Of a stretch of 31,273 nucleotides of DNA, positions 1-26,098 are shown piece after piece; within the stretch, counting starts at the first letter, position 1, and each line of letters starts with the position of its first letter. The translations under genes and the position numbers were made by a program. Origin of the DNA: Candidatus Micrarchaeota archaeon (GTDB lineage: Archaea; Micrarchaeota; Micrarchaeia; Anstonellales; Bilamarchaeaceae); assembly GCA_040754495.1 (NCBI GenBank), contig JBFMCO010000017.1, positions 1 through 31,273 on the forward strand, given 5' to 3'. The notes beneath the pieces are model-generated. The model did not search any database, was not told the DNA's origin, and saw only the letters and a program-made list of their open reading frames with translations.

Positions 1-382
1 TCACCCCGCCCTGGAGGACTATGACGTTTTCAGGCCCGGAGAGAATCATGTCGAACTGCCGCCCAATCCAGCCATCCACAAGCTGGCCGCCTTTCGTGAC
101 GTCTTTGACTTGGACTTCGCCGGCTGCTTCGCCGAGCCTTCCCGCCACGAGCCCGCTGTAGCCTGTCATTATCGAGTCCCCGATGACGACGATACGCGGG
201 GATTTCAGCGCCCTGGAGACATAATCTTCAAGCACGAGCGGCCTGGAATCGAGAGGCGTCGCATCCTGCACAATCCGCGGGATGGGGGTTTCAGGAATCC
301 TGTCAGGCTCCGGCTTCGCGCAATTAATGGAAGAGATTGCTGCCGCTGCCGCGAAAACGCGCTTGCAATAAGTCCGGGGCAT
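1..382 (-). CDS. SGNH/GDSL-family hydrolase with lipoprotein-like signal peptide (runs off the window start)
   Basis: Not in the ORF track. Manual translation from ATG 382: MPRTYCKRVFAAAAAISSINCAKPEP...RIVVIGDSIMTGYS (block I GDS) ...KGGQ (block II) ...VIVLQGGV[N] (block III GxN). Frame is open to position 1. AT-rich TATA-like tract at about 405-416. Confidence 0.8.
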   Translation of the reverse strand, partial: MPRTYCKRVFAAAAAISSINCAKPEPDRIPETPIPRIVQDATPLDSRPLVLEDYVSRALKSPRIVVIGDSIMTGYSGLVAGRLGEAAGEVQVKDVTKGGQLVDGWIGRQFDMILSGPENVIVLQGGV

Positions 383-420
383 GAAGGAGACTATCGCCAC
401 AACATTATTTAATTATACAC

Positions 421-1488
421 TTAATGGGCCTGCCTGCGCCTCTCGGGCTCGGGCTGCGGCGCGCGCCGTGGAACCGTCTGGGGCGGGCGGTACATCTGGG
501 AGATGTCCATGGGAGCAGGCGACAGGAGGCGGTAGAGCCCCTGGTAGGCCGCCGCATCCGGGCCGGCCCTCTGCCTGAAGGCGGCCTGCGAATTGAGGAG
601 CGTGGCCATGTCCATCTCCTCGGTCCGCCTGCTGCCGTCCGCCTGCGTTATCGTGACGCGCACGTTCGCATCGAGGAAGCGTATCCCGTGGCTGTAATCG
701 TGGTAAGTAACCTCGTGGATGTCGCTCAGCCCCTGGATGCCGCGGTGATATATGACGACGCGGGGCCCTTTTGCGGGGTCGGGAATCGCGCGGATGTCGT
801 AAACGACGTCTTTCTTGTGCCCTGAGCGGATGCCGGCCGGATCTCCGGCCGCAGTCCTCGCCTCCCTTATGAGGCGGTTCTGCTCGAGTGTGAATTCAGG
901 CGAAAGCATCCACCTGCCCTCGTAAAATCCGTATTTCTGGTTGTTCCATCTTGCCCCGGCCTCCCCTTCGATGGCCGGCCTCTCGGTCCTCGGGTTGATG
1001 ACCCCCCTGGCGAGCGTCGGGGCGCCGAAAAAGCCCAGGTATCCGCCGGTCCTTTTCGCCTCGTCGTCGAGCATGTCCACGACGCTCTGCGTGGGGAGCG
1101 CGAGCCCGAACTGGTCCGCGATGCGCTGTGCGGTGCGCGGATTTATCGGCACAAGCACGTAATCGTCGTTCCTCCCGATGGCAAGATAATCCGGGCACAC
1201 GCGTATAGTAGCCTCGACCGTCCTTCCCCCGATCGTCCTCTGGACGGTAATCTGCCGGTAGTTTTCAGGCCGCATGAAATCAGGCATGTTGCCGCGCCGC
1301 ACTTCCTGGAATATCATCTCCTCTGCCTGGGCTCTCCTGCGCTCGAGCTCCTGCCCGGAGAGGCCGTGCACCTCTCCCATAAGCGTCCGGAGTTGCTCCA
1401 TGAACGCCGAGCCTGTCGGTGCGTTCGTAGCGCGCGGTGGAATGATTAGACGGGTAACGCCTGTTCGTACCGGAGTGGGTTCTGCCAT
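421..1488 (-). CDS. Conserved hypothetical protein of a family I recall mainly from bacteria (PDYLAIG / LPT / GHKKDV / DYSHG motifs)
   Basis: 355-aa ORF with TATA-like ATTTAAG (1516-1510) about 22 nt upstream. Motifs: PDYLAIGRNDDYVLVPINPRTAQRIAD, GHKKDVV, YHDYSHGIRF. Confidence 0.8.
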   Translation of the reverse strand: MAEPTPVRTGVTRLIIPPRATNAPTGSAFMEQLRTLMGEVHGLSGQELERRRAQAEEMIFQEVRRGNMPDFMRPENYRQITVQRTIGGRTVEATIRVCPDYLAIGRNDDYVLVPINPRTAQRIADQFGLALPTQSVVDMLDDEAKRTGGYLGFFGAPTLARGVINPRTERPAIEGEAGARWNNQKYGFYEGRWMLSPEFTLEQNRLIREARTAAGDPAGIRSGHKKDVVYDIRAIPDPAKGPRVVIYHRGIQGLSDIHEVTYHDYSHGIRFLDANVRVTITQADGSRRTEEMDMATLLNSQAAFRQRAGPDAAAYQGLYRLLSPAPMDISQMYRPPQTVPRRAPQPEPERRRQAH

Positions 1489-1518
1489 GATAGAAATGAT
1501 GCGGGAAAACTTAAATTG

Positions 1519-2022
1519 CTATGGAAGCGGGGCGAAAGAGCCGGCTTCAAGGACGAACTCGACCTTGGAGGACTTGAGGGCGCTCCCCCTTCCCGGCATG
1601 AAGTCGATCATTACCGCGAGGTCTTCTCTTGTCAGAGGCGCAGGGATGACGCATTCTGGAACGTTCCTGCAGCCGGGGATTGCCGTCCACTCGCCGGAAG
1701 CCCCCGTTACGGCGGGGTGGAGGTAGTAGAATGTGACCTTCGGGTCAAGGATAATCCTCTCTAGGCTGTTGTCCGGCCCGATGACGCTGAGCCTCGCCTC
1801 GACGAGCGGCCCGTACTGCGAATACGAGAGAACGGTGGCCTTCAGGGGGGCGGCCTTCCGGGCAACAGGGATTTCGACCAGCGGGGAAGCGTCGGCTCCA
1901 TGGGGGATTGTTATGACGAGCGGCGATGCCGGCTTTTCAAGCGCCGTGACGCACGAAGACAAATTCGCTGCAAATACCGCGGCCGCGGCCGCCTTTTCCG
2001 CCCGGAAAGCGAGTGCTCTCAT
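1519..2022 (-). CDS. Hypothetical exported protein with lipobox-like signal
   Basis: Basic N-region, Ala-rich h-region, then LSSC. The beta-rich remainder has one further Cys. Confidence 0.7.
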   Translation of the reverse strand: MRALAFRAEKAAAAAVFAANLSSCVTALEKPASPLVITIPHGADASPLVEIPVARKAAPLKATVLSYSQYGPLVEARLSVIGPDNSLERIILDPKVTFYYLHPAVTGASGEWTAIPGCRNVPECVIPAPLTREDLAVMIDFMPGRGSALKSSKVEFVLEAGSFAPLP

Positions 2023-2039
2023 GTTTTCACCAAATGTGA

Positions 2040-2522
2040 TTAATGCCTTCTGTTCATCCCGCCCATTGGGACCGACACGATGCGCGCGTACGGGACTGAA
2101 AGGGTCTCCTCACGGTCCTGGCCCCACTCATTCGGCATGACAACTATCTGGCCCGAGCCTGTGAGCTGGTTTCCGCTCCTGGCCATGCCTTTGTAGAGCG
2201 TTTCCCACTCGGCCTCGAGCTTCGTCTTTACGACGTCAAGGAATTTCCTCGCGAATGAGGGCATTGAGCCGGCGTCGAGGCTCCTTTCGGTCCTTGCGCG
2301 GGCGTGCTCGCGGCCCTGCATGTTGACGTCGAAGCAGAGCGTCTCCTTATCGGCCGCCACTTCGAGGGATATCGACCTCTCGCTCGCGCCGATGCTGAGG
2401 ATTATCTTCCCGTCCCGTAGCCCTTCGACTGCAGGCTCGAGCTCCGCCCTCCACCTGACGACCATCGGCGTATTGAAAGTGCTTTTCCTTATAGTAGCAT
2501 GAGTCCTGTCTCTGTGTGCCAT
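2040..2522 (-). CDS. Hypothetical protein
   Basis: 160-aa ORF with typical codon usage and ATTTAAAT (2546-2553) 23 nt upstream. Confidence 0.7.
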   Translation of the reverse strand: MAHRDRTHATIRKSTFNTPMVVRWRAELEPAVEGLRDGKIILSIGASERSISLEVAADKETLCFDVNMQGREHARARTERSLDAGSMPSFARKFLDVVKTKLEAEWETLYKGMARSGNQLTGSGQIVVMPNEWGQDREETLSVPYARIVSVPMGGMNRRH

Positions 2523-2575
2523 GGTATGGATTAGTGGTATAAAATATTTAAATGTTCTCTTTTATCCTTTTTTTA

Positions 2576-2938
2576 TCACTTCTTTAGATGCTGTATCTCG
2601 ACAAGGCGCTCGCCCTCGGCTCCCTCCATGATTGCGCATATCCTCTCGCCGTGCGTCCCCACGTCCTGGAGCCGCGTGCCGTCAAGGTTCCTTGAGATGA
2701 AAAGATAGAGGTCCATCCTGCCCACCCCGGCCCGCAGGGAAACCGAGAACCTGACTGTCTCGGTAGGGCGCTCTCCGCCCATGGAGTCGCGGCAGAGCTG
2801 CCGCTCATAGGAGAATCCTTTCTCAAGCAGGGCGCTCAGCACCTGCGAATCCGCATGGGCGATGTAGTCCGGCTCGGGCTTCGTCACAAGGACTTTCAGG
2901 CTAGCGCTTCCACTGGCTGACGATGTCCGGGCCCGCAT
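2576..2938 (-). CDS. Hypothetical protein
   Basis: 120-aa ORF. Its TATA-like AATTTATAA overlaps the stop of the upstream gene, 22 nt before the ATG. Confidence 0.65.
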   Translation of the reverse strand: MRARTSSASGSASLKVLVTKPEPDYIAHADSQVLSALLEKGFSYERQLCRDSMGGERPTETVRFSVSLRAGVGRMDLYLFISRNLDGTRLQDVGTHGERICAIMEGAEGERLVEIQHLKK

Positions 2939-2960
2939 GAAGTGATATCGCAGGACGAGA

Positions 2961-3329
2961 TTATAAATTTTTGTAACCGGCCTCGGGGACGAACCTGCCG
3001 GCTTTCACGAAATGGACTTTCACGAGGCCGGCCTCTTCCGCGGCCTTCGCCATGGCGAGGAGCACGGGCCCGTCATTTATCGGGTCGTAGCCCGGGATGG
3101 GGCTTCCCTTCAGGTGCCTGCAGAAGAAATCCGCAAGTTTTGCCTCGGTTACCCCGTCTGCGAGCTCAAGATAGTGCCGGTCACGGCTCACATCGGAATA
3201 GCCGGAGGCCACGCCGAATCCCCCTGCGAGAAGGACGCGGACACGCGCAAGGTCGCGCGCTTCGGCGGCGCCGTTCCCATTGAAGCGCTTCCGCGTTTCA
3301 TCCTGCGGGGCACGTTTCTGCTTGAGCAT
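2961..3329 (-). CDS. Hypothetical protein (start revised to MLKQKR)
   Basis: The track gives 3404. ATG 3329 follows an A-rich TATA-like tract at the usual spacing. Confidence 0.6.
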   Translation of the reverse strand: MLKQKRAPQDETRKRFNGNGAAEARDLARVRVLLAGGFGVASGYSDVSRDRHYLELADGVTEAKLADFFCRHLKGSPIPGYDPINDGPVLLAMAKAAEEAGLVKVHFVKAGRFVPEAGYKNL

Positions 3330-3423
3330 GAATGGGATTGTCCATGGACGTGTTTTTATTTGTTGCAGAACGAGGGAGAAATACGATTGGCCGGTCCGCA
3401 ACATGTGGATGATTTTTCGCTGG

Positions 3424-3714
3424 TCACCTTCTCTTAGGGGACTTCTTTCCGGCTTTGGCCCTGGCTTTGGGTGCCGCTTTCTTCTTCGGGCGCCTCGTCT
3501 CGACAGGTGCCGACGCTGCGGCCTCTATCCTGCTTTTCTGCGTCGCCATGTGGAACCTGCTGTCCAGCTCCACCGCCACCTTCTCGTACTCCTCTGCGGA
3601 AACATGCTGCGTGGCTGCGTTCCCGCATCTGGAGCAGACGAAATGGCCTTCAGCTCGCTCGAGGGCCCTTGGCATCTTGCCACAACCGGCGCATATCTCG
3701 ATTGTGTCCTCCAT
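3424..3714 (-). CDS. Zn-ribbon protein with Lys/Ala-rich basic tail
   Basis: CAGC...CSRC (two CxxC), C-terminal KKKAAPKARAKAGKKSPKRR. TATAAAT 22 nt upstream. Confidence 0.8.
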   Translation of the reverse strand: MEDTIEICAGCGKMPRALERAEGHFVCSRCGNAATQHVSAEEYEKVAVELDSRFHMATQKSRIEAAASAPVETRRPKKKAAPKARAKAGKKSPKRR

Positions 3715-3744: not shown

Positions 3745-5982
3745 TTATCTGACTCCGAGGAAGTCCGTGCCGAGCACGCGCGTGTTGATTATGCCGATCG
3801 ACTCGTGGAGCAGCCTTCCCTCAGAGGTCTCGTACGTGCCCATGTAGCCGTTCGGGCCGAAGAGCTGGGACTGGAATGTCGGCGCCTGTTTGTTCTGCCC
3901 GTAGAATCTTATGGCCTGGTCGAACGTCCCGGGCGGAGTCCGGTACTCGTTTCCGTAATCGAGCAGGGAAGTCCCCTCCGGGGGCTGGGCGATGGCCACG
4001 ACATGCGGGCCGTTCCGCGTGTTCACCGACGCGACTATCGTCGGTATCCCGTTCGAGCGCAGGAACTCGGCCATCAGGTGGTGGATGCCGGCGCAAACAG
4101 CTATGCCGTTTCGCAGCTCGTCCGGCAGCGGGTCGTTCGGACCGTGGCTGTTGTACCATCCGACGTAGCGCTGGATGTACGAGTACATCGTGTCAGTGTT
4201 GGCGCCGGATATCCTCTGCACCTCGGGGTCGAAGAACCGGGTGTTGTTGAGAGCCTCCCAGGCGTTGTTCGCGTACGCCACCTGCTGCAGGAACGCCCCG
4301 AGGAACCTTGCGGCCATGATTTTCTCGTTTGTGGACGCGCTGCCGTAGGTGCTGGAGAATTCCGCGAAGCTCGTGGACTCCATTATCCTGGACTTGGCCG
4401 CATTCACCTGCGCGTCGATTTCAGCATTGCCGGAGCGCCCGAAGCCGTATGGCCCGGGGTCGGCCTGCGTCGGGAAGGACGTTTCCGCGAACCTGACGCC
4501 GCCCGACTGCATATGCTCGTACCTGAACGTGTTCGTGGAGTTGATGTACCTTCCGCCGAAGACGAGATTCAGGCCCATGAACGCCATCGGGTCCCACCTG
4601 CCGCCGAGCGCGTCGTCCCAGCGGATGGCGCCGCCGCCAACCCAGATGTCCCCGGAGACGTTGTCGCTGAAGTTTATCGTCCTCGTGAGGCGGGCGCCGA
4701 CCCGCTGGTTGAGCACGCCCCAGTCGCCGAAGATGCGGGCCGTGTACTGGTCCTCGTAGAACCGGTACTGGGCGCCGAACTCGACGTCCTGGAACTGCGG
4801 CCTGTAGTTGCCGACGAACGCGGTCTTTATCGGGTCGTTGGCCGCGAAATAGAAATTCGGCATGACGTACAGCAGGAAGTTGTGGAACTCCGCCGACGCC
4901 CCGAAGGCCATGTTGAAGTATATGTCGTCCCAGGCAGGGTACGAGAGCGCGCCGCCGATTATCCCGCCGAGCCTGAGCCTGAAGTTGTCGCCAATCGGCT
5001 GGGAGTATCCGAGGCCGACCGAATGCGACGTGTAGAGGACCGAGGGCATGTTGCCGACGGCCGCGACGCTGCCGTAGTAGTTGAGGCGCAGCCTCCAGAC
5101 GCTCACGCCGGGCCGCAGGAGAAGCCGCGCGAACGGCGCCGGCTGCTCCCCGAACCACATGTTTCCCGCGTTGAAGACCGCGTCGAAAGGCCGGGCGTGG
5201 CTTCCGCGGTAGGTGTATCTTATCGCGCCCCATACGGACGAGCCGGCTTCGTTGGCGTAAACGTTGCCGCCTATGTCCCATGCGTTGTCCAGGCTTATCG
5301 GCCTCCTGCGGCCTGCCAGGTCGACGTTGTCCGGATAGGGGCACAGGGCGGGGTCCTGGTATCTCGCGGCATTCACGATGCCTGAATCGGCATCTAGGCT
5401 GCCGGAATTCGGGCCGGTGGTGGCGACCTCGCCTTCGGCCTGTATGCGGGGCTCCTCGCGCGGGCGGGAGCTTGCCGGGCGGTCAGTGTAGGCGAAGCTG
5501 AGGCGGGCAGTCCCTCCCTCGCCCTGCTGGACGGCAAAATCCCTGAAGCCGAGGCTGTCGATAACGCCGACGGCCCCGCTGCGCGTCCCATCATAATTTA
5601 CCCTGAAGGTCGCGCTCTCCTGCCTTCCCTGGGACGGGACCAGCGTAACGCTGAATTCCACTCCTCGGTCGTCCACCGCGGAAACGTTCACACCAGCGAT
5701 TGTGGCAGGGGACACCTGCTCGCCCATGACACGCTCGCTATTGAGAAGGGAGAGCACCTCCGTGCCCAGGGACACCTGCCCGCTGAAGGGGCGCATGCGC
5801 GGGCTGCGTTCCGCCGCCCCCGGGCCGGCCTCCTGGGCGTACGCGGTATTGTAAAGCAGCGACGCGCCCATGAAAAGCGCTGCGGCTGCGGCCGCAGACG
5901 CCGCCCTTGCCATTACTTTCCTTGAGAATGAGCCCTTTCCTTCTTCCTTCTTCGAGACGATATCCGAATGAGACAACCTCAA
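3745..5982 (-). CDS. Secreted protein: signal peptide, N-domain, putative beta-barrel, transglutaminase-like Cys protease domain
   Basis: Ala-rich signal ending AYA|Q. Residues ~233-476 have alternating hydrophobic/aromatic strands. C630 (IAVCAG), H660 (GPHVV) and D675 (LLDYG) fit the transglutaminase-like triad. TTG start with AGGTGG upstream; ATG 5913 is an alternative. Confidence 0.8.
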   Translation of the reverse strand: MRLSHSDIVSKKEEGKGSFSRKVMARAASAAAAAALFMGASLLYNTAYAQEAGPGAAERSPRMRPFSGQVSLGTEVLSLLNSERVMGEQVSPATIAGVNVSAVDDRGVEFSVTLVPSQGRQESATFRVNYDGTRSGAVGVIDSLGFRDFAVQQGEGGTARLSFAYTDRPASSRPREEPRIQAEGEVATTGPNSGSLDADSGIVNAARYQDPALCPYPDNVDLAGRRRPISLDNAWDIGGNVYANEAGSSVWGAIRYTYRGSHARPFDAVFNAGNMWFGEQPAPFARLLLRPGVSVWRLRLNYYGSVAAVGNMPSVLYTSHSVGLGYSQPIGDNFRLRLGGIIGGALSYPAWDDIYFNMAFGASAEFHNFLLYVMPNFYFAANDPIKTAFVGNYRPQFQDVEFGAQYRFYEDQYTARIFGDWGVLNQRVGARLTRTINFSDNVSGDIWVGGGAIRWDDALGGRWDPMAFMGLNLVFGGRYINSTNTFRYEHMQSGGVRFAETSFPTQADPGPYGFGRSGNAEIDAQVNAAKSRIMESTSFAEFSSTYGSASTNEKIMAARFLGAFLQQVAYANNAWEALNNTRFFDPEVQRISGANTDTMYSYIQRYVGWYNSHGPNDPLPDELRNGIAVCAGIHHLMAEFLRSNGIPTIVASVNTRNGPHVVAIAQPPEGTSLLDYGNEYRTPPGTFDQAIRFYGQNKQAPTFQSQLFGPNGYMGTYETSEGRLLHESIGIINTRVLGTDFLGVR

Positions 5983-6046
5983 GTTCCCACCTGGGGAGTA
6001 TTATAATAGAAGGATATTTAAGGTTGTATTTTATAGAAACGGGTGG

Positions 6047-6763
6047 CTAGGCCTTGCGGCGGGAGGGGCGGGTCTTGCGTTTCCCGGGTGAAACGCCGGG
6101 CGTTTCACTGGGGCGCAAGGAACGTTGCGACGTTCCTTCGCGTGCGGCTTTGAGCTTTGAGTTCAGGGAATAGCCGAAGGCGAGGTAGTCGCTGAGGAAG
6201 GCCGCCATGTTGGAAAGCTTCTCCTCCCTGGGCGGGCGCGGCCCTTTCTCGAACTCGAGGCGCACGCACAAATCCAGGATGCCGTCCCTGTTGCGGATGA
6301 AAAGGACGGGGTATTTCCTGTCGAATTCGGCGACATCGGCCTGGATGGGGGCGAACGCCTTGGCATCCCCGCCGACGCCGAGCACGCCGTTATCGTCCAG
6401 CCCTGCCTCGAACGACGCCTTCGCGCCGTTCTCGAAAGAAAGGAGGTAGTCCACGGGCACCGAATCCGGGGCCGAGCCGATTGTCGAGCTGAACCTCGCG
6501 CGCTCCCCCCTGTAAATCAGGACGAGAGTCCCGTAGGAGAGAAGCTCGGATTCCCACGATTCGAGCCCCCGGATGTTCCTGCACGCCGCCCGGAAGTCCG
6601 CGGCCCGGTCTTCCGAGGCCTTGAACAGCAGGGCGAATATGAAGAGGGAGAGGACCGTCAGGGCATAGCTGTTTATCCCGGGAAGGAATACGGAAAGCAG
6701 GATTGATGACAGGGCGAAAAGCCCGAGCAGCAGGTCGCTAAAGAAATACGGGAACATTCTCAT
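6047..6763 (-). CDS. Membrane-anchored hypothetical protein (2 N-terminal TM helices)
   Basis: Start revised to ATG 6763, which follows AGGAGTGA. Two hydrophobic segments are followed by a soluble domain. Confidence 0.7.
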   Translation of the reverse strand: MRMFPYFFSDLLLGLFALSSILLSVFLPGINSYALTVLSLFIFALLFKASEDRAADFRAACRNIRGLESWESELLSYGTLVLIYRGERARFSSTIGSAPDSVPVDYLLSFENGAKASFEAGLDDNGVLGVGGDAKAFAPIQADVAEFDRKYPVLFIRNRDGILDLCVRLEFEKGPRPPREEKLSNMAAFLSDYLAFGYSLNSKLKAAREGTSQRSLRPSETPGVSPGKRKTRPSRRKA

Positions 6764-6767
6764 GCCA

Positions 6768-6923
6768 TCACTCCTTCGCAAGGCCCTGCTTCACCATCTG
6801 CCTGAACATGGCAACCGGCACCACTACGGAAACGTTCGAGCCGCACTCCGGGCAGAGGAACTCCTCCTTCTGCTCCCTGGAGATCTTGCCGCAGTTTGCG
6901 CAAATCTCTACCGTGCCCTTCAG
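6768..6923 (-). CDS. Small Zn-ribbon protein (51 aa), paralog of 3424-3714, probable CTG start
   Basis: LKGTVEICANCGK...FLCPECGS aligns with MEDTIEICAGCGK...FVCSRCGN. GGTGGA lies just upstream of the CTG, and there is no in-frame ATG nearby. Confidence 0.7.
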   Translation of the reverse strand: MKGTVEICANCGKISREQKEEFLCPECGSNVSVVVPVAMFRQMVKQGLAKE

Positions 6924-6996
6924 GTTTCCACCCGGAATGAGTAGGGCGTCATGGTTTATATATCGATTGAGTCCAGCAAGAAAATGGTGATGATAT

Positions 6997-7302
6997 ATGG
7001 GAATAATATCCGAGTTCAGGCAGTTCCTTGAGGAGTATAAGGTCGTGGGACTTGCCGTGGCATTCATCATGGGCGCGGCCGTTACGGCCCTCGTCAATTC
7101 CCTCGTTAACAATATCGTGATGCCCTTCGTGGGGCTGGCGCTGCCGGGCGGCGACTGGCAGACCGCGGCCGTCGAAGTCGGCACGGCGAAAATAGGCGTC
7201 GGGGCTTTCCTTTCCGCGGCGCTTAACTTCACGATAATCGCGTTCGTGGTGTTCCTGATCGCGAAGCTAGTGCTGAAGGAGGAGAAAGTCCAGAAGAAAT
7301 AA
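6997..7302 (+). CDS. mscL: Large-conductance mechanosensitive channel
   Basis: EFRQFL...VVGLAVAFIMGAAVTALVNSLVNNIVMP and GAFLSAALNFTIIAFVVF match the MscL TM1/TM2 pattern. GGTGA SD. Confidence 0.93.
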   Translation: MGIISEFRQFLEEYKVVGLAVAFIMGAAVTALVNSLVNNIVMPFVGLALPGGDWQTAAVEVGTAKIGVGAFLSAALNFTIIAFVVFLIAKLVLKEEKVQKK

Positions 7303-15609: not shown

Positions 15610-16092
15610 TCAGTTTCCGGATTTGAGGGTGGAGAGGTCCAGGCTGCTTTTTCCCGGGATTATAGAATTGTCTTTCGAGAAGCCCTTGTTCACTTCAAGC
15701 ACGTATTTGGCCTTCTCGCGGGGGAAGTAGAGCTTGCAGCGGGTGACATTGAGCCCGCATGGCTCCATCTGCAGGACATCCACCACGGTGCCGTTTTCTG
15801 CTATGTGGATGGCGTCGAGGGCGATTGTCGTATTCAGCATCCAGAACGGGTAGATGCCCGGCCTGTCGAACACGAACAGCATGCCCTCGTTCTCCCCGAG
15901 GCTTTGGCGCCCCATGAGGCCTTTCATCTTGGTGGCGCTGTCTGTTGCGATTTCAGCGTCTATGGGAAGGCGCTCGCCCTCGGCATTCACCAGTGCCAGC
16001 CTGCGCTTCTCCCCTTTGGCGCTGACCAGGTAGACCACGAGGACAAGAAGGATTGCCGCGGCGATAAGCGCCGCGAGCTCGTAGTTTTTCAT
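15610..16092 (-). CDS. DUF192 family protein with N-terminal TM anchor
   Basis: GLMGR..L....GMLFVF, FWMLNT.I.LD, YVLEVNKG. Confidence 0.9.
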   Translation of the reverse strand: MKNYELAALIAAAILLVLVVYLVSAKGEKRRLALVNAEGERLPIDAEIATDSATKMKGLMGRQSLGENEGMLFVFDRPGIYPFWMLNTTIALDAIHIAENGTVVDVLQMEPCGLNVTRCKLYFPREKAKYVLEVNKGFSKDNSIIPGKSSLDLSTLKSGN

Positions 16093-16101
16093 CGGCCGCC
16101 C

Positions 16102-17211
16102 TTAGATTTTCTTGAACCTGTCCCTGAATTTCTCCTGGAGCTTCGGGAGGTTGGTGTATTCCATGTCCTCCTCCGGGAGCCTGTGCGGCTCGAAGGGGCC
16201 GTGCCTCCTCATGTACTCCGCGATTTCGTTTGCCTTTGCCCGGGTGTATTCGTAGGAATGGTCCTTGAATATGTCGTGCGGGCCGACGAGCGTGCCGTTC
16301 GCGAGCTGGAAGCCGAGCGCAACGACGCGCGGCGGGCCGTCGAGCCGGGACGGCGTCGCGGTCTCCATGCTGCAGGGCATCATCGGGCCCTGGTGGGAGC
16401 CGCGCATCCATCCTGAGACGAGGTGCGGGAAGCTGAAGGGCTCCAGCGCCTCGCCGACCGAGGGAAGGCCGGCCTGGCAGCGGACGATTGCTACAGGGTC
16501 GTCCTTGCCCACGTACGTCCCTGCGACCTGCGACAGCTTGTCGGTCGAGACGCAGCAGATGGCCTCGGACTCGTTCACCCTGTTGCCCGGGCCCGGGTAG
16601 ACGCGCTTGATTACGTAGCGCGAGCGCGAGCCCACGAACGCAAGCATCGAGTAGGTCTCCTCGGGCGTCTTGAAATCCACTTTCCTGCCCTCGATTGTGT
16701 CATAGACCTCGAAGCGGAATCCGCCCTGCATGTTGGAGTCTATCACGAGGCCGGGCGTGTTGAACGGGTCCGCAAACATCCTGTAGACAGGAAGGTTGAA
16801 CGCGCCGGGGTCGGTCTTGTCCATCATGAACACGATGACCGGCTCGCTTTGCCTTTCCTCGAACTCCAGCTCCGCGACGCCCGGGCCCATGCCGCGCACG
16901 TTGCCCGAGAACGCGTCCTTGAGAAGGTCCTGGCCGGCGCCATAGAGCTTGAGCTTCTTCGCCACCGCGGTCCCTGCCACGAACGCGTCCCACGCGAGGC
17001 CGTGGATTTCCTTGCTGTCCACGCCCTTCGTGTGCGTCATGATGAGGTTGATGTCGTCCCCGCACCAGCCCACGAAACAGTCGATGATGAGCCCTTTCTT
17101 CTTCGCTTCAGCCATCTTCTCCCGGACAGTCCTGACGACGTCAGGATGCACGGTCTCGTGGCCCGGGAACCCGCCTATGTCTGCTTTAATCACACTGAGG
17201 GTGACTTTCAT
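16102..17211 (-). CDS. fbp: Bifunctional fructose-1,6-bisphosphate aldolase/phosphatase
   Basis: SVIKADIGG.PGH, GDDI.LIMTH, YGAGQDLLKDAFSGNVRGMGPG, GKDDPV, GWMRGSH. GAGGTG SD. Confidence 0.97.
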   Translation of the reverse strand: MKVTLSVIKADIGGFPGHETVHPDVVRTVREKMAEAKKKGLIIDCFVGWCGDDINLIMTHTKGVDSKEIHGLAWDAFVAGTAVAKKLKLYGAGQDLLKDAFSGNVRGMGPGVAELEFEERQSEPVIVFMMDKTDPGAFNLPVYRMFADPFNTPGLVIDSNMQGGFRFEVYDTIEGRKVDFKTPEETYSMLAFVGSRSRYVIKRVYPGPGNRVNESEAICCVSTDKLSQVAGTYVGKDDPVAIVRCQAGLPSVGEALEPFSFPHLVSGWMRGSHQGPMMPCSMETATPSRLDGPPRVVALGFQLANGTLVGPHDIFKDHSYEYTRAKANEIAEYMRRHGPFEPHRLPEEDMEYTNLPKLQEKFRDRFKKI

Positions 17212-17379
17212 AATTCGTTGCACCTCAAACCGGATTAGACTTGCAGGGAGTGAATAAAAAGATTGCGATGGCCGCGCCGCCCGGCAGCAGCGATTGATTT
17301 ATATATTTTTTCCATCATTAACCACTTCAATTCCCAATGCTCAGAGTAACAAACAACCCAGATGCAGAAAGGTGAAAGA

Positions 17380-17673
17380 ATGGAACCAGCCGGCACTAAG
17401 AGGAACTCGCACTACCCGTCGATAAGGCTTTACGACGAAATGAACCGCCTGAGGAGGCGGGACGGCCACCCTGAGCTCGACCCGTGCGAATTCGCGCGCC
17501 ACATACACACGCATTTCGAGGTAAGTCACGTCCCGCTCGTGGCCGAGGCGGTGAGGAACATCGAGGAAACGCACGGAGTGGAATTCGAGACGCCCAAAAG
17601 AAGGTCGAGGCTCTCTGCGCTTTTCGCCCGCTTCATGAGCGCCCCGGAGCCTCCGATGGCATCCGATGAATGA
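17380..17673 (+). CDS. Hypothetical protein
   Basis: AGGTGA SD before ATG 17380, TTTATATA upstream, typical codon usage. Confidence 0.6.
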   Translation: MEPAGTKRNSHYPSIRLYDEMNRLRRRDGHPELDPCEFARHIHTHFEVSHVPLVAEAVRNIEETHGVEFETPKRRSRLSALFARFMSAPEPPMASDE

Positions 17674-17677
17674 ATCG

Positions 17678-18217
17678 CTAATCCGCGTGCCCGCCCTTCC
17701 CTTCCCCGTGGGCAGCTCCCCCGCGTATCTTCATGTAGGTGTGGTGGGAATAGAGCAGAAAATCCAGCATCGCGTCCACATACGCGCGGGCGGCCCGGAC
17801 ATCGTCCGCGTCATAGTCCCTTTTCTCCATGGCCTCCGCGAAACGGCCCTCGACTTCCTCCTTGACGGCATTCGAGAGCAGGGAGGTAACCTCGCCGCAG
17901 TTGCCGGTCCCGATGGCGCTCTCGGCCCTCGGAATGACCGGGCCGGTGTCGAGGCCGGCGGGCTTGAGGCCATTGTATGGCGCGCCCTCGCCTGCCCGGT
18001 GGAGGCGCACGACAGTCTCGAAGAACCAGAGGTCCGCGACCTCGGCCGCATCCGCCCCCTGCTTCCTGGCCTTCATGGCCTTGCCGAAAGCGGCCCGGAC
18101 TTCGCCCTCCGCCCCTTCATGCACCCATGGCAGGACCAGATTGACATTCCCCTTCTCAAGGGCCTTCATGGCGGCTTTCACCACAGGCCCGTCCAGCGTA
18201 TCGCAGTGCGGCGGCAT
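17678..18217 (-). CDS. DUF6448-like protein
   Basis: HCDTLDGPVV, FFETVVRLHRAGEGAPYNGLKPAG. GGTGA SD before ATG 18217. Confidence 0.85.
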   Translation of the reverse strand: MPPHCDTLDGPVVKAAMKALEKGNVNLVLPWVHEGAEGEVRAAFGKAMKARKQGADAAEVADLWFFETVVRLHRAGEGAPYNGLKPAGLDTGPVIPRAESAIGTGNCGEVTSLLSNAVKEEVEGRFAEAMEKRDYDADDVRAARAYVDAMLDFLLYSHHTYMKIRGGAAHGEGKGGHAD

Positions 18218-18326
18218 TTCATCACCCATCAGCCAACTGCACCGGCATTTAAATTTTCGACGATTGCAGAACATTCCGCTTGACTTCCGACAACATTTTA
18301 AAACTGGTGCCCGGCAACAAGGCCCT

Positions 18327-20042
18327 ATGGCGGCAGAAACAGGGCAGGAACCGGACTACGACTTTGAATCTGAGAAGGGGTTGAACCTCGTGAGGGTGCA
18401 GCTCGCCCCTTACAGCAGCATAACGGGAAGGGTATACAGGAAGGCGCCGTCATTCCCGATGGACTCGGATGCGAAATGGGGGTACTTCACCCCGATGGAC
18501 GGCTTCGTTCCGATAGACGCCATCGTCAACACCATGTTTTCGCCAGATGTGGATTACGGCGCATCAGGCTTCGAGGGCGTGAGGCTCCAGAGGACGAGGT
18601 ACGGGGACGGATTCATTGAGCTGGCATCCAATATCAGGAGGCTCGCGTACACGAACCTTGCCTTCGACCTCTCGCTTGTCAGCGGCACCATGGCGCTCTC
18701 GGACGGCTCCGACGTCGCAAGAATCGAGCACCTCCAGAGGACGCCGCAGGAATTTTTCGACGACGCACGGAGGAACCTCGAAAAGGACATAGAGATGGGC
18801 GTCGATATCGTCTTCAAGGACGGGAGCAGGAAAACCGCGAAGGTCCCCTTCCCCCTCACCGCGCGCTTTAGCGACGGGGACAGGAGCGTCATGCCGATGG
18901 AGTTCGAGGCCGCTATATGCTCGCTTGCCATCCTGAACCGGCTCGTCCGGGGAGGGGTTTTCCCGGAAAATGAGATAGGACTGATTCCGGGCGGCTACTT
19001 CAGGCCTGGCTTTTCCTATTCTGGCGTGGAGGGGCTCAAGGTGCCGACCGCGTACCTCAAGGACGGAAAACTGCTCTTCAGGCCCAAATACCTCAAGATA
19101 GGGACGCTGCCCTGGGGGCCGTATCTGCCGGAGCAGGGATACAGGACCGGGCTGGACGTCCTGGTAGCCCCGTTCCCCCGCGCGGACGGCGCGATGCCGG
19201 TCTGGCAGAAGGTGGGCGGCGTGTACGTGAATTCAGCAAGGAACATCAACATCGCGATGATGCTCAAGTTCGGCGAGATTCTGGCCTGCAACCACGAGGA
19301 CAGGATAGTCGAGGGCTCCGCGGAGAACATAGTCATCCTGCTCACCCACAGGGAAACGGGAAAGCTGAAGGCTTACTTCCCGCCGCTTTCCGCGAACATA
19401 CTTGCCGGCACGACGCGGGACCGGGTGTTGAGGGTCCTCGGGGAGGGGCTCAGCGCCGACGGGATGAAGGCGGAGCTGGTGATGGAGGCCCCGCGCAGGA
19501 GATACCTCCTGGACTGCCTCGAGGGCAAGACCAAGTGGGATGTTTCCGCGATCGTCCTCATGGGGACCGGCGTAGGCCTCATCCACGCGCGGTCGCTGAC
19601 GCACAACCCCGAGCTGAAAGACTGGATGGGCCTTAACGAGCTGCGCTCCGAAGAGGCGGCGGCGGACCCGATTATCCTCCGGAAAATCAGGGAAACGGAA
19701 AAGAGGTATCCCATAAACGGAGGCGTCCAGCACCCCTTCGTCGCCGCGCTCAAGAGGGCATATGCCGCCTACGCAATCGGGGACAACGGGAGCAGGATAA
19801 CGCCGGCATACGATATGGACTACCATATGGCCGAGAGGATTTTCGGGGTGGGCCTTGACGAGGTTTCGGACAGGGACTTCCGCTCGAAGGCGGATGGCGG
19901 CTACTTCAGGGAAAGGATAGACGGCGTAACCCACCCCGACGAGCTAAAGGCGAGATATAAGGAGGCAATCAGGGTAATAACGAAAATGAACCGGCTGTGC
20001 CAGGAAAGGAAGGGCGAGCCGGTCGCGTTTCCAAGAAGATAA
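18327..20042 (+). CDS. Extended class IV PLP aminotransferase (IlvE-like), 571 aa
   Basis: YGASGFEGVR, KVGGVYVNS (PLP Lys), EGSAENI, ILAGTTR, GTG. Start revised to ATG 18327, after a TTTTAAAA promoter. Confidence 0.85.
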   Translation: MAAETGQEPDYDFESEKGLNLVRVQLAPYSSITGRVYRKAPSFPMDSDAKWGYFTPMDGFVPIDAIVNTMFSPDVDYGASGFEGVRLQRTRYGDGFIELASNIRRLAYTNLAFDLSLVSGTMALSDGSDVARIEHLQRTPQEFFDDARRNLEKDIEMGVDIVFKDGSRKTAKVPFPLTARFSDGDRSVMPMEFEAAICSLAILNRLVRGGVFPENEIGLIPGGYFRPGFSYSGVEGLKVPTAYLKDGKLLFRPKYLKIGTLPWGPYLPEQGYRTGLDVLVAPFPRADGAMPVWQKVGGVYVNSARNINIAMMLKFGEILACNHEDRIVEGSAENIVILLTHRETGKLKAYFPPLSANILAGTTRDRVLRVLGEGLSADGMKAELVMEAPRRRYLLDCLEGKTKWDVSAIVLMGTGVGLIHARSLTHNPELKDWMGLNELRSEEAAADPIILRKIRETEKRYPINGGVQHPFVAALKRAYAAYAIGDNGSRITPAYDMDYHMAERIFGVGLDEVSDRDFRSKADGGYFRERIDGVTHPDELKARYKEAIRVITKMNRLCQERKGEPVAFPRR

Positions 20043-24650: not shown

Positions 24651-25457
24651 TCACTTGCCCGCGATGAGGGCGCCCTTGTGGTAAATCCTGCCGTCCCCGA
24701 TACAGTCGGAAACCTCTCCCAGCTCGCCGTCAAGGTGTATCTCCCCGGCCTTCATGTAGCCCCCTATGTTCTTCCCGGGCTTGCCCATCAGGCGGATGGT
24801 ACCGCCTTCCATCATGCTTCCCAGCGCATGGCCGGCATTCCCTTTCACCACCAGTTCGCCGCCCTCCAGATGCCCCGCTCCAAAGCCAGCGTTTCCTTCA
24901 ACGATGATAAGTCCGCCTGCCATCCTGTGCGCGGGATGGTCGCCTGCATCGCCTTCAACCACGATGCTCCCGCCAGCCATCCCATAACCCAAGCACTCCC
25001 CGATGCCGCCTTCGATGATGACGTTCTTCACGTTCTTGTAGCCGAAGTCGTGCATGGGCGCCGAAAGATGCTTTGTCGGAATGATATACGCGATGTCCGG
25101 CCCGCAATTCACAAGGGCGCTCAGGAAAAGCCCGGCCTTTTTCGGGAACTCCGGGCGGTCATCATAGGCGGAAAGGGCGATGCAGAACTTCTTCACGTCC
25201 TGCGGCGTGTATGCGATGCCTTTCAGAAGCTCGCAGGCCTGCGCATACGGCTCTTCGAGCACCTCGAGCGTCTGGTCGGGGTAGGCGCAATCGAATTTCT
25301 CGAACGCTCCCATGAGGCGGGCAAGCGCCTGGTCTTCCTTGACTTCGACGTTCTGGACCGCCTTTTCGGCCTCCTTCCTGAACCTGCCGAAGCGGCTCGC
25401 CGCGCGCGTCATGTGCAGGCCGGTTCCCTCTGCCGCCCTTAATTGGTACTGAGTCAT
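24651..25457 (-). CDS. GXGXG beta-helix repeat protein #3 (FwdC / GltB C-terminal-like repeat)
   Basis: About 5-6 19-aa repeats (IVVEGDAGDHPAHRMAGG...). ATGA overlap with the upstream paralog. Confidence 0.85.
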   Translation of the reverse strand: MTQYQLRAAEGTGLHMTRAASRFGRFRKEAEKAVQNVEVKEDQALARLMGAFEKFDCAYPDQTLEVLEEPYAQACELLKGIAYTPQDVKKFCIALSAYDDRPEFPKKAGLFLSALVNCGPDIAYIIPTKHLSAPMHDFGYKNVKNVIIEGGIGECLGYGMAGGSIVVEGDAGDHPAHRMAGGLIIVEGNAGFGAGHLEGGELVVKGNAGHALGSMMEGGTIRLMGKPGKNIGGYMKAGEIHLDGELGEVSDCIGDGRIYHKGALIAGK

Positions 25458-26098
25458 ATGAGAACACCCCGATGATAAATGCGCCCGCCTTCCGTATTCA
25501 TCCCGAGGCCCTCCATCTTCCCAAGGACGCTTATGCTGCCCCCGCTCATTCCCTCGCCGAGGAAAGGCCCGGAATCGCCGCTTATTACTATTGAGCCGCC
25601 GGACATGTACGCCCCGGCCTCCTTTCCCGCGTTCCCGCGCACGAGCAGGCGGCCTTTTTTCATGAAGGCGCCAAGGCTTTCGCCCGCATCGCCGTAGACT
25701 ATGAGGTTCTTCTCGTTGTAGCAGCCGAGGCATTCGTAACCCGTGGAATAGACACGATACGTGCGCGATGGGCCGGTGTTGGCAAGCGCGCTTAGGAACA
25801 TGCCTGCGATTTCAAGCTGGCGGGTGATGCCGCTGAGAGCGATGCTAAAATCAGCCACCTCGCGGGGCGAGCACTGGAGGCCGCGGACACGGTCCTCGAT
25901 GATGGGATAGTTGTCAAGGAAAAAACCCCAGCCGAACCGCAGGCTGCTCCATAGCGACAGGATGGCTTCGAACCTTTCGCTCCGGCTGACGGAGGGCGCC
26001 CCTGCGCGGCCCTCGGCCTCGGGCTTGTAGCCGCCGAATTTCTTGCCGGCTGCCAGCTCCGATGGACCAGCGCCTTCTCGACCAACAAGTGCCCTCAT
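25454..26098 (-). CDS. GXGXG beta-helix repeat protein #2
   Basis: LIVYGDAGESLGAFMKKGRLLVRGNAGKEAGAYMSGG... repeats. ATGA overlap with the VWA gene stop. Confidence 0.85.
   Translation of the reverse strand: MRALVGREGAGPSELAAGKKFGGYKPEAEGRAGAPSVSRSERFEAILSLWSSLRFGWGFFLDNYPIIEDRVRGLQCSPREVADFSIALSGITRQLEIAGMFLSALANTGPSRTYRVYSTGYECLGCYNEKNLIVYGDAGESLGAFMKKGRLLVRGNAGKEAGAYMSGGSIVISGDSGPFLGEGMSGGSISVLGKMEGLGMNTEGGRIYHRGVLI

Follow-up and report, generated by a model that had tools for sequence, protein, structure and literature searches.

An archaeal gene predicted to join an outer-membrane-type beta-barrel to a transglutaminase-like domain in Micrarchaeota

The locus and its product

The stretch of DNA analyzed here (hereafter, the window; 31,273 nucleotides, nt) is the entire contig C17 of a Candidatus Micrarchaeota genome of 1.63 Mb in 72 contigs, which is 80% complete and 1.46% contaminated. 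On its reverse strand, a frame of 745 codons runs without interruption from 5982 to 3745 and encodes a protein, P0001, that we predict to consist of an export signal, a variable N-terminal domain, a beta-barrel of the outer-membrane-protein (OMP) type, and a C-terminal thiol enzyme. An earlier note on this DNA, made from the sequence alone, had proposed an outer-membrane-like barrel fused to a transglutaminase-type domain, a description that is supported by structure prediction, fold searches, residue patterns, and taxonomy. On balance, we lean toward reading P0001 as a lineage-specific envelope protein in which a lipid-embedded barrel would be combined with a thiol enzyme. The parts of this reading that we infer are the residence in a membrane, the outward face, the topology, the cleavage of the signal peptide, and the activity and substrate of the enzyme. 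The main features of the gene are as follows:

3745 to 5982, reverse strand: open reading frame (ORF) of the barrel–transglutaminase-like protein P0001, 745 amino acids (aa), with a TTG start at 5982-5980 and a stop at 3747-3745
5836 to 5982, reverse strand: Sec-type signal peptide, residues 1-49, from homolog N termini and the family consensus (presumably cleaved)
5485 to 5802, reverse strand: variable N-terminal beta-sandwich, residues 61-166, from AlphaFold2 and homolog coverage
5362 to 5484, reverse strand: disordered linker rich in Pro, Ser, and Glu, residues 167-207, with a predicted local distance difference test score (pLDDT) below 50 at residues 172-204
4513 to 5361, reverse strand: predicted outer-membrane-type beta-barrel, residues 208-490, from AlphaFold2, VIA-align, Foldseek, and residue patterns
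3748 to 4485, reverse strand: helical subdomain (residues 510-625) and transglutaminase-like core (626-745), together residues 500-745, from Pfam, the ESM Atlas, and the model

This architecture was taken from a full-length AlphaFold2 model built on 41 sequences (pLDDT 84.2; predicted template modeling score, pTM, 0.71).

The predicted barrel and its two faces

The barrel comprises a conserved lead-in (residues 208-234), 14 amphipathic strands (235-475), and a polar, conserved strand 15 (481-490; NSTNTxRYEH). Modeled alone, residues 208-498 yielded a pLDDT of 89.4 and a pTM of 0.81, and the barrel pLDDT was 89-95 across the AlphaFold2 models. In both models, strands of 9-16 residues follow one another in antiparallel order between 235 and 490, 15 in all, with connections of 2-13 residues. 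All eight strand strings that the earlier note had quoted are found at the residues it gave, and its strand region, residues 233-476, corresponds to nt 5286-4555.

We compared the barrel model with 48,161 solved chains using VIA-align and considered the best 50 rows, every one of which (50/50) was a membrane barrel. The top matches were PelB (9h80_M; Z 17.7, root mean square deviation [rmsd] 3.4, 239 residues aligned), PgaA (4y25; Z 16.1), BcsC (6tzk; Z 15.5), and OmpG (2f1c; Z 14.2), and further ones included FhaC/CdiB, Occ porins, BamA/TamA, PorV, FadL, TonB-dependent receptors, VDAC/Tom40, and Sam50. About 90% of the barrel domain superposes on solved 14- and 16-stranded barrels at an rmsd of 3.1-3.8 and a Z of 14-17.7. 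The top Foldseek matches were membrane barrels throughout, and the independent ESM Atlas model of P0001 matched OmpG, YaiO, Slam, DUF3570, and autotransporter clusters with template modeling (TM) scores of 0.65-0.72. A shape search of the Atlas with the AlphaFold2 model returned DUF3570/porin clusters (TM 0.70), and language-model features placed the barrel segment beside “Gram-negative porin” clusters (score 0.91). At the sequence level, no Pfam family of described OMPs recurred at E values up to 1 across 41 barrel segments, where the matches were scattered and of the chance kind; searches of solved-structure sequences with the whole protein, the barrel profile, and the enzyme profile gave nothing but a chance match at E 0.34. 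Judged from these models, the fold is probably that of an outer-membrane protein.

The two faces of the strands were analyzed by strand register across 41 homologs. Over residues 235-475, the period-2 hydrophobic moment stood at z = 3.0 above shuffled sequences (a value reached by 3 of 2000 shuffles), and the flanking domains gave z = -0.4 and -1.3. Each of strands 1-14 has one face that is 57-88% hydrophobic and 0-19% charged (0-7% in 13 of the 14). Pooled over the strands, this face contains L 14.3, V 13.0, A 11.6, F 10.5, I 9.7, G 9.5, Y 5.8, and W 3.5%, with R, K, D, and E together amounting to 3.8%, and the opposite face contains G 15.5, S 11.8, R 11.1, A 8.3, Y 7.3, D 6.6, and T 6.2%. 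Aromatic residues occupy strand ends on the hydrophobic face (W235, Y256, W276, Y302, Y326, F334, Y348, F356, F369, F408, Y413, and W463), and all 12 invariant strand residues (G238, G273, G323, G325, R337, S347, G361, S363, Y372, G403, D445, and G470) lie on the polar one. The outward hydrophobic run usually measures 4-6 residues per strand, as in bacterial OMPs. As far as residue patterns can tell, the two faces fit an exterior exposed to lipid, whose residues may change within the hydrophobic class, and a lumen that is constrained, charged, and lined with glycine. By barrel geometry, 14-16 strands would enclose too wide a space for the hydrophobic face to pack into a filled core. The earlier note had held a beta-sandwich or a polar exterior to be incompatible with its proposal; the model is no beta-sandwich, and its hydrophobic face is almost free of charge. 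We consider it somewhat likely, going by the predicted structure, that the barrel resides in a lipid layer.

The last amphipathic strand carries the invariant motif G470-x-x-[LIV]-x-[FLIV]. The resemblance to an OMP beta-signal that had been noted for this strand holds for the invariant glycine and the two hydrophobic positions, but not for the rest: the strand is internal, with 270 residues following it, and it ends in F, L, I, or V rather than in a conserved aromatic residue.

Connection lengths in the full-length model are 7, 2, 3, 2, 4, 4, and 5 residues on one side of the barrel and 3, 2, 6, 6, 13, 2, and 7 on the other. With the entry of strand 1 and the exit of strand 14 on the side of the shorter turns and a wall of 14 or 16 strands, both soluble domains would thus lie on the insertion side of the barrel, as in bacterial OMPs. 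This bears on a device resembling an inverse autotransporter, in which, as in intimin and invasin, an outer-membrane barrel would thread the enzyme through its own lumen to the far side. The order of signal peptide, barrel, and C-terminal functional domain is indeed the same, as the earlier note had remarked for barrel and passenger, and a cluster of the IAT_beta family appears among the language-model neighbors at 0.89, which is a lead. The likeness ends with the domain order, however: there is no match to the IAT_beta family PF11924, the barrel has 14-16 strands and not 12, the enzyme is a compact fold of 245 residues and not a string of Ig-like repeats, type Ve secretion needs the beta-barrel assembly machinery (BAM), which was not found, and strand parity would send the C-terminal exit to the insertion side. 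We consider such a device highly unlikely.

The soluble domains, the gene, and its archaeal context

In the C-terminal domain, which was modeled with a pLDDT of mostly 93-97 in the full-length protein, three codons mark a putative catalytic site:

4093 to 4095, reverse strand: codon of Cys630, the predicted nucleophile (G-I-A-V-C-A-G-I-H), invariant in the close-family alignment
4003 to 4005, reverse strand: codon of His660 (G-P-H-V-V), invariant
3958 to 3960, reverse strand: codon of Asp675 (L-L-D-Y-G), at least 90% conserved in the close family

The C630/H660/D675 triad of the earlier note is encoded at these codons and is invariant or nearly so in the close family. Among 22 distant members that keep the enzyme domain, the Cys is present in 22, the His in 22, and the Asp in 20. 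No part of the protein is better conserved than the motifs GIAVCAGIH, NGIP, GPHVV, and LLDYG, including in members with a barrel that has drifted to E 1e-5. Pfam PF01841 matches residues 600-656 of P0001 at E 0.006 (17.3 bits against a cut-off of 23) and gives a weak match in 22 of 40 members at E up to 1 (best 2.5e-4); in a genome-wide PF01841 scan, the P0001 site came fourth, behind two clear transglutaminase-core genes. By features, the Atlas neighbors of residues 492-745 are transglutaminase-like, and by structure, all 10 of the rows shown were transglutaminase-like clusters or PF01841/PF04473 matches (TM 0.41-0.45 by query, up to 0.61 by row). From these motifs and matches, we conclude that the C-terminal domain is predicted to be an intact thiol enzyme of the transglutaminase/papain-like kind, one that may cleave, deamidate, or cross-link its substrates. 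The pseudomurein endoisopeptidases PeiW and PeiP are members of this superfamily of predicted thiol peptidases, and Makarova, Aravind, and Koonin (1999) reportedly predicted archaeal and bacterial homologs of animal transglutaminases.

At the other end of the protein, residues 1-49 comprise a charged n-region, an Ala-rich hydrophobic stretch (a helix at 21-42 in the model), and an A-x-A motif (AYA) preceding Q50, and the PLxExxAxAQ(D/E) motif of this signal peptide is kept across the family. A 19-mer peak at residues 22-47 is the sole hydrophobic one in P0001, with the signal peptide as the only hydrophobic helix. After cleavage, P0001 would accordingly be left with no membrane anchor other than the barrel, which speaks for a barrel that anchors the protein in the cell's own cytoplasmic membrane: inserted from outside and with its lumen plugged by residues 208-234 and/or 481-490, it would tether the enzyme and an adhesin-like N-terminal domain. 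Both candidate plugs are conserved (D210, G224, and R227 in the lead-in; N481, S482, T483, and H490 in the polar strand), and FadL-type barrels, which have N-terminal plugs, align from model residue 4-5 on. However, prokaryotic cytoplasmic membranes are not known to contain any beta-barrel, the proton gradient would be lost through a leaky pore of 14-16 strands, the usual archaeal anchors are helices or lipids, and the plug is conjecture. We thus judge a cytoplasmic anchor to be decidedly unlikely.

The N-terminal beta-sandwich (strands at 64-165, pLDDT mostly 76-97 with some low-confidence stretches) is missing or replaced in many homologs, and those that cover 72% of the query are without it. 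The N-terminal parts of the homologs measure 87 to 249 residues. In distant members, the barrel follows straight after the signal peptide and other C-terminal domains are added, so that barrel and enzyme form the constant core. A weak paralog of the sandwich (residues 63-177; 30% identity, E 9e-4) sits within another open frame of the genome (C5:17993-18337), which suggests that the N-terminal domain is a shuffled surface module.

The homologs begin with the same MRLxH as P0001, so we take the TTG at 5982 as the true start. Upstream of it lies an AT-rich gap of 64 nt with a TATAAAATA box at 6027-6035, and the putative expression signals are:

6027 to 6038, reverse strand: TATA-like box TTCTATAAAATA, read from the sequence (putative function)
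5999 to 6008, reverse strand: second AT-rich box in the same 64-nt gap, after the stop codon of the upstream gene (6049-6047)
5987 to 5991, reverse strand: Shine-Dalgarno-like GGTGG, 4 nt before the TTG start, likewise read from the DNA

The outer-membrane character of the barrel raises the question of whether the gene is bacterial, through contamination, a chimeric contig, or a recent transfer of an outer-membrane gene; all structural neighbors and all Atlas neighbor clusters are indeed bacterial. The genes on either side are nevertheless archaeal. The contig encodes deoxyhypusine synthase, an archaeal class V FBP aldolase/phosphatase (PF01950), class I GluRS, and RNR, its GC content is even (0.56-0.65), and GGGP synthase is encoded in the genome. 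An ortholog of 60% identity lies on a 482-kb contig of a Micrarchaeia metagenome-assembled genome (MAG) among the same surrounding genes, in the order DinB-like polymerase, RsmB, HIT, deoxyhypusine synthase, peroxiredoxin, class III aminotransferase, MscL, small zinc-ribbon, 224-aa protein, barrel gene, and zinc-ribbon. Another, of 41% identity, lies on a 186-kb contig that retains the core of this order.

A word-indexed search returned 52 relatives (E down to 0), of which all named ones are Micrarchaeota, plus one MAG labeled just “bacterium.” With the barrel-only profile, a search of 1.84 billion representative proteins gave 45 clusters, every named one from Micrarchaeota, and no bacterial OMP family or bacterial sequence relative; the named distant barrel members are Micrarchaeota/Bilamarchaeaceae. 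In a sample of 300 genomes across the phylum, the gene was present in 31 of the 65 genomes of its own GTDB family, always as a single copy (10 of the 22 in its own genus), and in 0 of the 236 genomes of 29 other families. A distribution of this kind marks the family as lineage-restricted and dispensable, and as either young or fast-evolving. With the gene order repeated on two further contigs, a genome contamination of 1.46%, and a single-copy gene confined to one archaeal family, the bacterial explanation is effectively refuted: the barrel protein is vertically inherited and restricted to one Micrarchaeota family. The earlier note's placement “in an archaeon” is upheld by the deoxyhypusine synthase, the class V FBP aldolase/phosphatase, the GGGP synthase, the even GC content, and the synteny, and the 482-kb gene order disposes of the bacterial chimera that it had raised. 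Its suggested checks by AlphaFold, Foldseek, homolog taxonomy, and binning returned a membrane-type barrel, Micrarchaeota relatives, and an archaeal contig.

The immediate neighbors of the barrel gene are:

3424 to 3714, reverse strand: 96-aa zinc-ribbon protein with a basic tail (weak Zn_ribbon match), 30 nt downstream of the barrel gene
6047 to 6781, reverse strand: 244-aa protein with hydrophobic N-terminal segments, directly upstream, with no Pfam match

The 96-aa zinc-ribbon gene is the most constant neighbor, with orthologs of 53-63% identity directly downstream of the barrel gene on the 482-kb and 186-kb contigs; its product is probably cytoplasmic because it is without a signal peptide. 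The 244-aa protein is 40% identical to the 224-aa neighbor on the 482-kb contig and is absent from the 186-kb contig. Two paralogous small zinc-ribbon proteins, at 3424-3714 and approximately 6768-6965 (both reverse strand), flank the barrel gene, a pairing that is kept in the relatives of 41-60% identity. The 154-aa ORF at 6768-7232 is mostly an artifact: its last ~54 residues are conserved, and the rest overlaps an MscL-like gene (6997-7302, forward strand). Downstream, at 2-3404 on the reverse strand, follows a row of orphan genes (147, 120, 160, 167, and 355 aa); it closes at 2-400 with a GDSL-lipase-like gene that bears a lipobox and is truncated where the contig stops. Gene order is shared with the 482-kb contig for four of these genes, the lipase and those of 120, 167, and 355 aa, the last being duplicated there; in the 186-kb relative, none of the four has a counterpart. 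Near the barrel gene, the closer relatives carry small orphan genes, a duplicated protein of 300-355 aa, and a lipobox-bearing GDSL lipase. These neighbors offer no hint of function. Elsewhere in the window, a 737-aa ORF (17829-20042, forward strand) has a sub-threshold Aminotran_4 hit (residues 476-538) as its sole Pfam match, and a 360-aa protein (24651-25733, reverse strand) contains a GXGXG-motif domain (PF01493, E 1.3e-8).

Envelope setting and known systems

Transmembrane beta-barrels are regarded as typical of diderm bacteria, mitochondria, and plastids, with insertases of the Omp85 family considered necessary for their assembly. No archaeon is known to make outer-membrane-type barrels or the machinery for their insertion, which makes the predicted barrel of P0001 unexpected. 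The insertase BamA, which the earlier note had proposed to look for, did not turn up: none of the 71 family genomes searched, this one (80% complete) included, gave a match to Omp85/BamA (PF01103), with 7 of 14 control genomes positive. Neither TonB_C (PF03544) nor S_layer_N (PF05123) was found in the 80%-complete genome.

A lipid-embedded barrel with a thiol enzyme would work as follows. P0001 would be exported via Sec by means of its AxA-type signal peptide. The middle part would fold, in a lipid layer, as a closed antiparallel barrel of 14-16 strands with the geometry and surface chemistry of bacterial OMPs, and the N-terminal sandwich (on a flexible linker of ~40 residues) and the C-terminal enzyme would both stay on the insertion side. 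There, proteins of the envelope or of a partner's surface near the membrane may be the substrates of the enzyme, which would be a peptidase, isopeptidase, or transamidase, and the variable N-terminal domain would serve as a recognition module. The barrel would be seated in a second lipid layer, either the cell's own outer layer or the membrane of a partner cell; these are favored over the cytoplasmic membrane because an open pore of 14-16 strands would be harmful there. Since no Omp85/BamA was found in the lineage, insertion would be independent of BAM.

Several points weigh against this reading. All of the structural evidence is prediction, and the closure of the barrel, its strand number (14, 15, or 16), and its outward face are drawn from fold matches and residue alternation. 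Two strands (298-309 and 369-380) are hydrophobic on both faces, as if packing against something other than lipid or water, and strand 15 (481-490) is polar on both, which makes it ill-suited to a lipid-exposed wall; together with the lead-in (208-234), these strands may form a seam, a plug, or an interface with the enzyme. No insertase is known or found for the barrel, and we know of no archaeal membrane beta-barrel that has been shown experimentally. Since roughly one genome in two of the family, and 10 of 22 within the genus, carries the gene, its product is not an essential envelope component. As to the enzyme, the PF01841 scores within the family (17-20.6 bits) all fall under the gathering cut-off of 23, and hhalign gave no significant match between the enzyme profile and the two bona fide transglutaminase-core proteins that the genome also encodes, although the Cys and NGIP align. 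Finally, the second envelope layer of the cultivated Ca. Micrarchaeum harzensis is an S-layer according to freeze-etching and proteomics (bioRxiv 10.1101/2021.04.28.441871).

Some of these points would suit a barrel that is a soluble or assembly-buried scaffold, its exterior masked by homo-oligomers, by S-layer or envelope proteins, or by lipid, within a secreted or S-layer-associated thiol enzyme. The failure to find an insertase in 71 genomes, the strands with two hydrophobic faces, the polar strand 15, and the S-layer of the cultivated Micrarchaeon all favor it, as does the existence of lipid-trapping, oligomeric porin-like barrels in bacteria (PopA, PMC12228718), whose structure 9gf0 matches at Z 11.9. 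Against this stands the pattern of the outward face, where ~90 positions are hydrophobic, 3.8% charged, and free to vary within their class while the invariant residues lie on the other face; this is the pattern of lipid exposure and not of a specific protein interface. Likewise, the 50 best structural neighbors are transmembrane without exception, and no S_layer_N protein was found in the 80%-complete genome. We consider a scaffold unlikely.

Micrarchaeota envelopes have been described in more than one way: for ARM-1, inner and outer membranes were reported from thin-section transmission electron microscopy (PMC8784108). Both this study and that of the S-layer concern other lineages than the family that carries the barrel gene. 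It has been argued that organisms of the wider group are relatively self-sufficient (PMC8561730). A true archaeal outer membrane in this lineage, with OMP-type barrels inserting without BAM and P0001 as an anchored thiol peptidase or transpeptidase, strikes us as a doubtful extension of the lipid-embedded reading.

Four exported orphan proteins elsewhere in the genome, of 523, 497, 639, and 715 aa, have Gly- and aromatic-rich regions of amphipathic strands and Ala-rich signal peptides ending in AxA (C40:26524-28095, which is L015:2525-4096, forward strand; C22:79982-81475, reverse strand; and the tandem C28:13747-15666 and 15859-18006, reverse strand). They were picked by a crude genome-wide count of amphipathic strands, a count that fails to separate barrels from other beta-rich surface proteins. 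Pfam recognized nothing in two of the four, and hhalign linked neither of those two to the barrel profile. Going by composition, these four may be additional OMP-like barrels. The genome also holds giant frames of 6841, 6652, 6147, and 3934 codons (C22:20178-40703, C42:26751-46709, C42:3466-21909, and C57:78-11882), which resemble the kind described for DPANN surface proteins.

In the literature on barrels, porins, transglutaminases, and outer membranes of Micrarchaeota and DPANN archaea, we found no description of this family, subscription journals lying mostly outside the coverage. Both folds are known; for the family, the fusion of barrel and enzyme, and their occurrence in archaea without BAM, there is no describing paper as far as we found. 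The finding matters as a barrel family, confidently predicted as such, that is under purifying selection in archaea, with no Omp85 found in 71 genomes of the lineage. Assuming a membrane-embedded barrel, these archaea would have an outer lipid layer, plant the protein in the membrane of another cell, or tolerate it in their cytoplasmic membrane, and each of these would be new biology that implies BAM-independent insertion. Should the outer membrane be real, membrane barrels would no longer be confined to Bacteria and organelles, having arisen by convergence or from a transfer too old to detect, and a molecular marker would become available for the disputed two membranes of Micrarchaeota. With a conserved Cys-His-Asp enzyme beside the barrel, surface proteins at that layer may be covalently processed. 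P0001 also offers a concrete antigen or marker for imaging the envelope of uncultivated Micrarchaeota and is small enough to be expressed and refolded.

Among known systems, the best barrel matches are PelB (9h80), PgaA (4y25), and BcsC (6tzk), porins through which Gram-negative bacteria export exopolysaccharides, with 235-239 of ~267 residues aligned at an rmsd of 3.1-3.8. Like P0001, these are compact barrels with short loops, in one chain with a soluble domain on the insertion side. In them, however, an N-terminal array of tetratricopeptide repeats (TPRs) precedes a C-terminal barrel, whereas in P0001 the order is reversed and the partner is a thiol enzyme. They also need BAM and lie in polysaccharide synthase operons, whereas P0001 has no TPRs, no synthase neighbors, and no Omp85 that we found, and shares no sequence similarity with them. 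OmpG (2f1c), the monomeric 14-stranded porin of E. coli, aligns over model residues 25-273 (Z 14.2, rmsd 3.6, 222 aligned), that is, over the 14 amphipathic strands, and an OmpG-family Atlas cluster matches the ESM model of P0001 at TM 0.71. OmpG stands alone and has long gating loops, whereas the barrel of P0001 has short connections on both sides, is one of three domains, and is unrelated in sequence.

The inverse autotransporters (intimin and invasin; PF11924) share the domain order with P0001, but they own a 12-stranded barrel, a linker in the lumen, a periplasmic LysM domain, Ig-like or lectin passengers, and a dependence on BAM, none of which were found for P0001. With the transglutaminase-like superfamily (PF01841; PF04473, DUF553), the enzyme has in common the order Cys-His-Asp and the contexts G-x-C, NGIP, H-V-V, and D-Y-G, and it differs by its sub-cut-off score and by a helical subdomain of 115 residues before the core. 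As an analogy only, PorV and PorU of type IX secretion, two separate bacterial proteins of unrelated sequence families, provide a case where a 14-stranded outer-membrane barrel (PorV 6h3i_F, matching the P0001 barrel at Z 12.4 and a Foldseek TM of 0.46) works together with a surface cysteine peptidase/transpeptidase.

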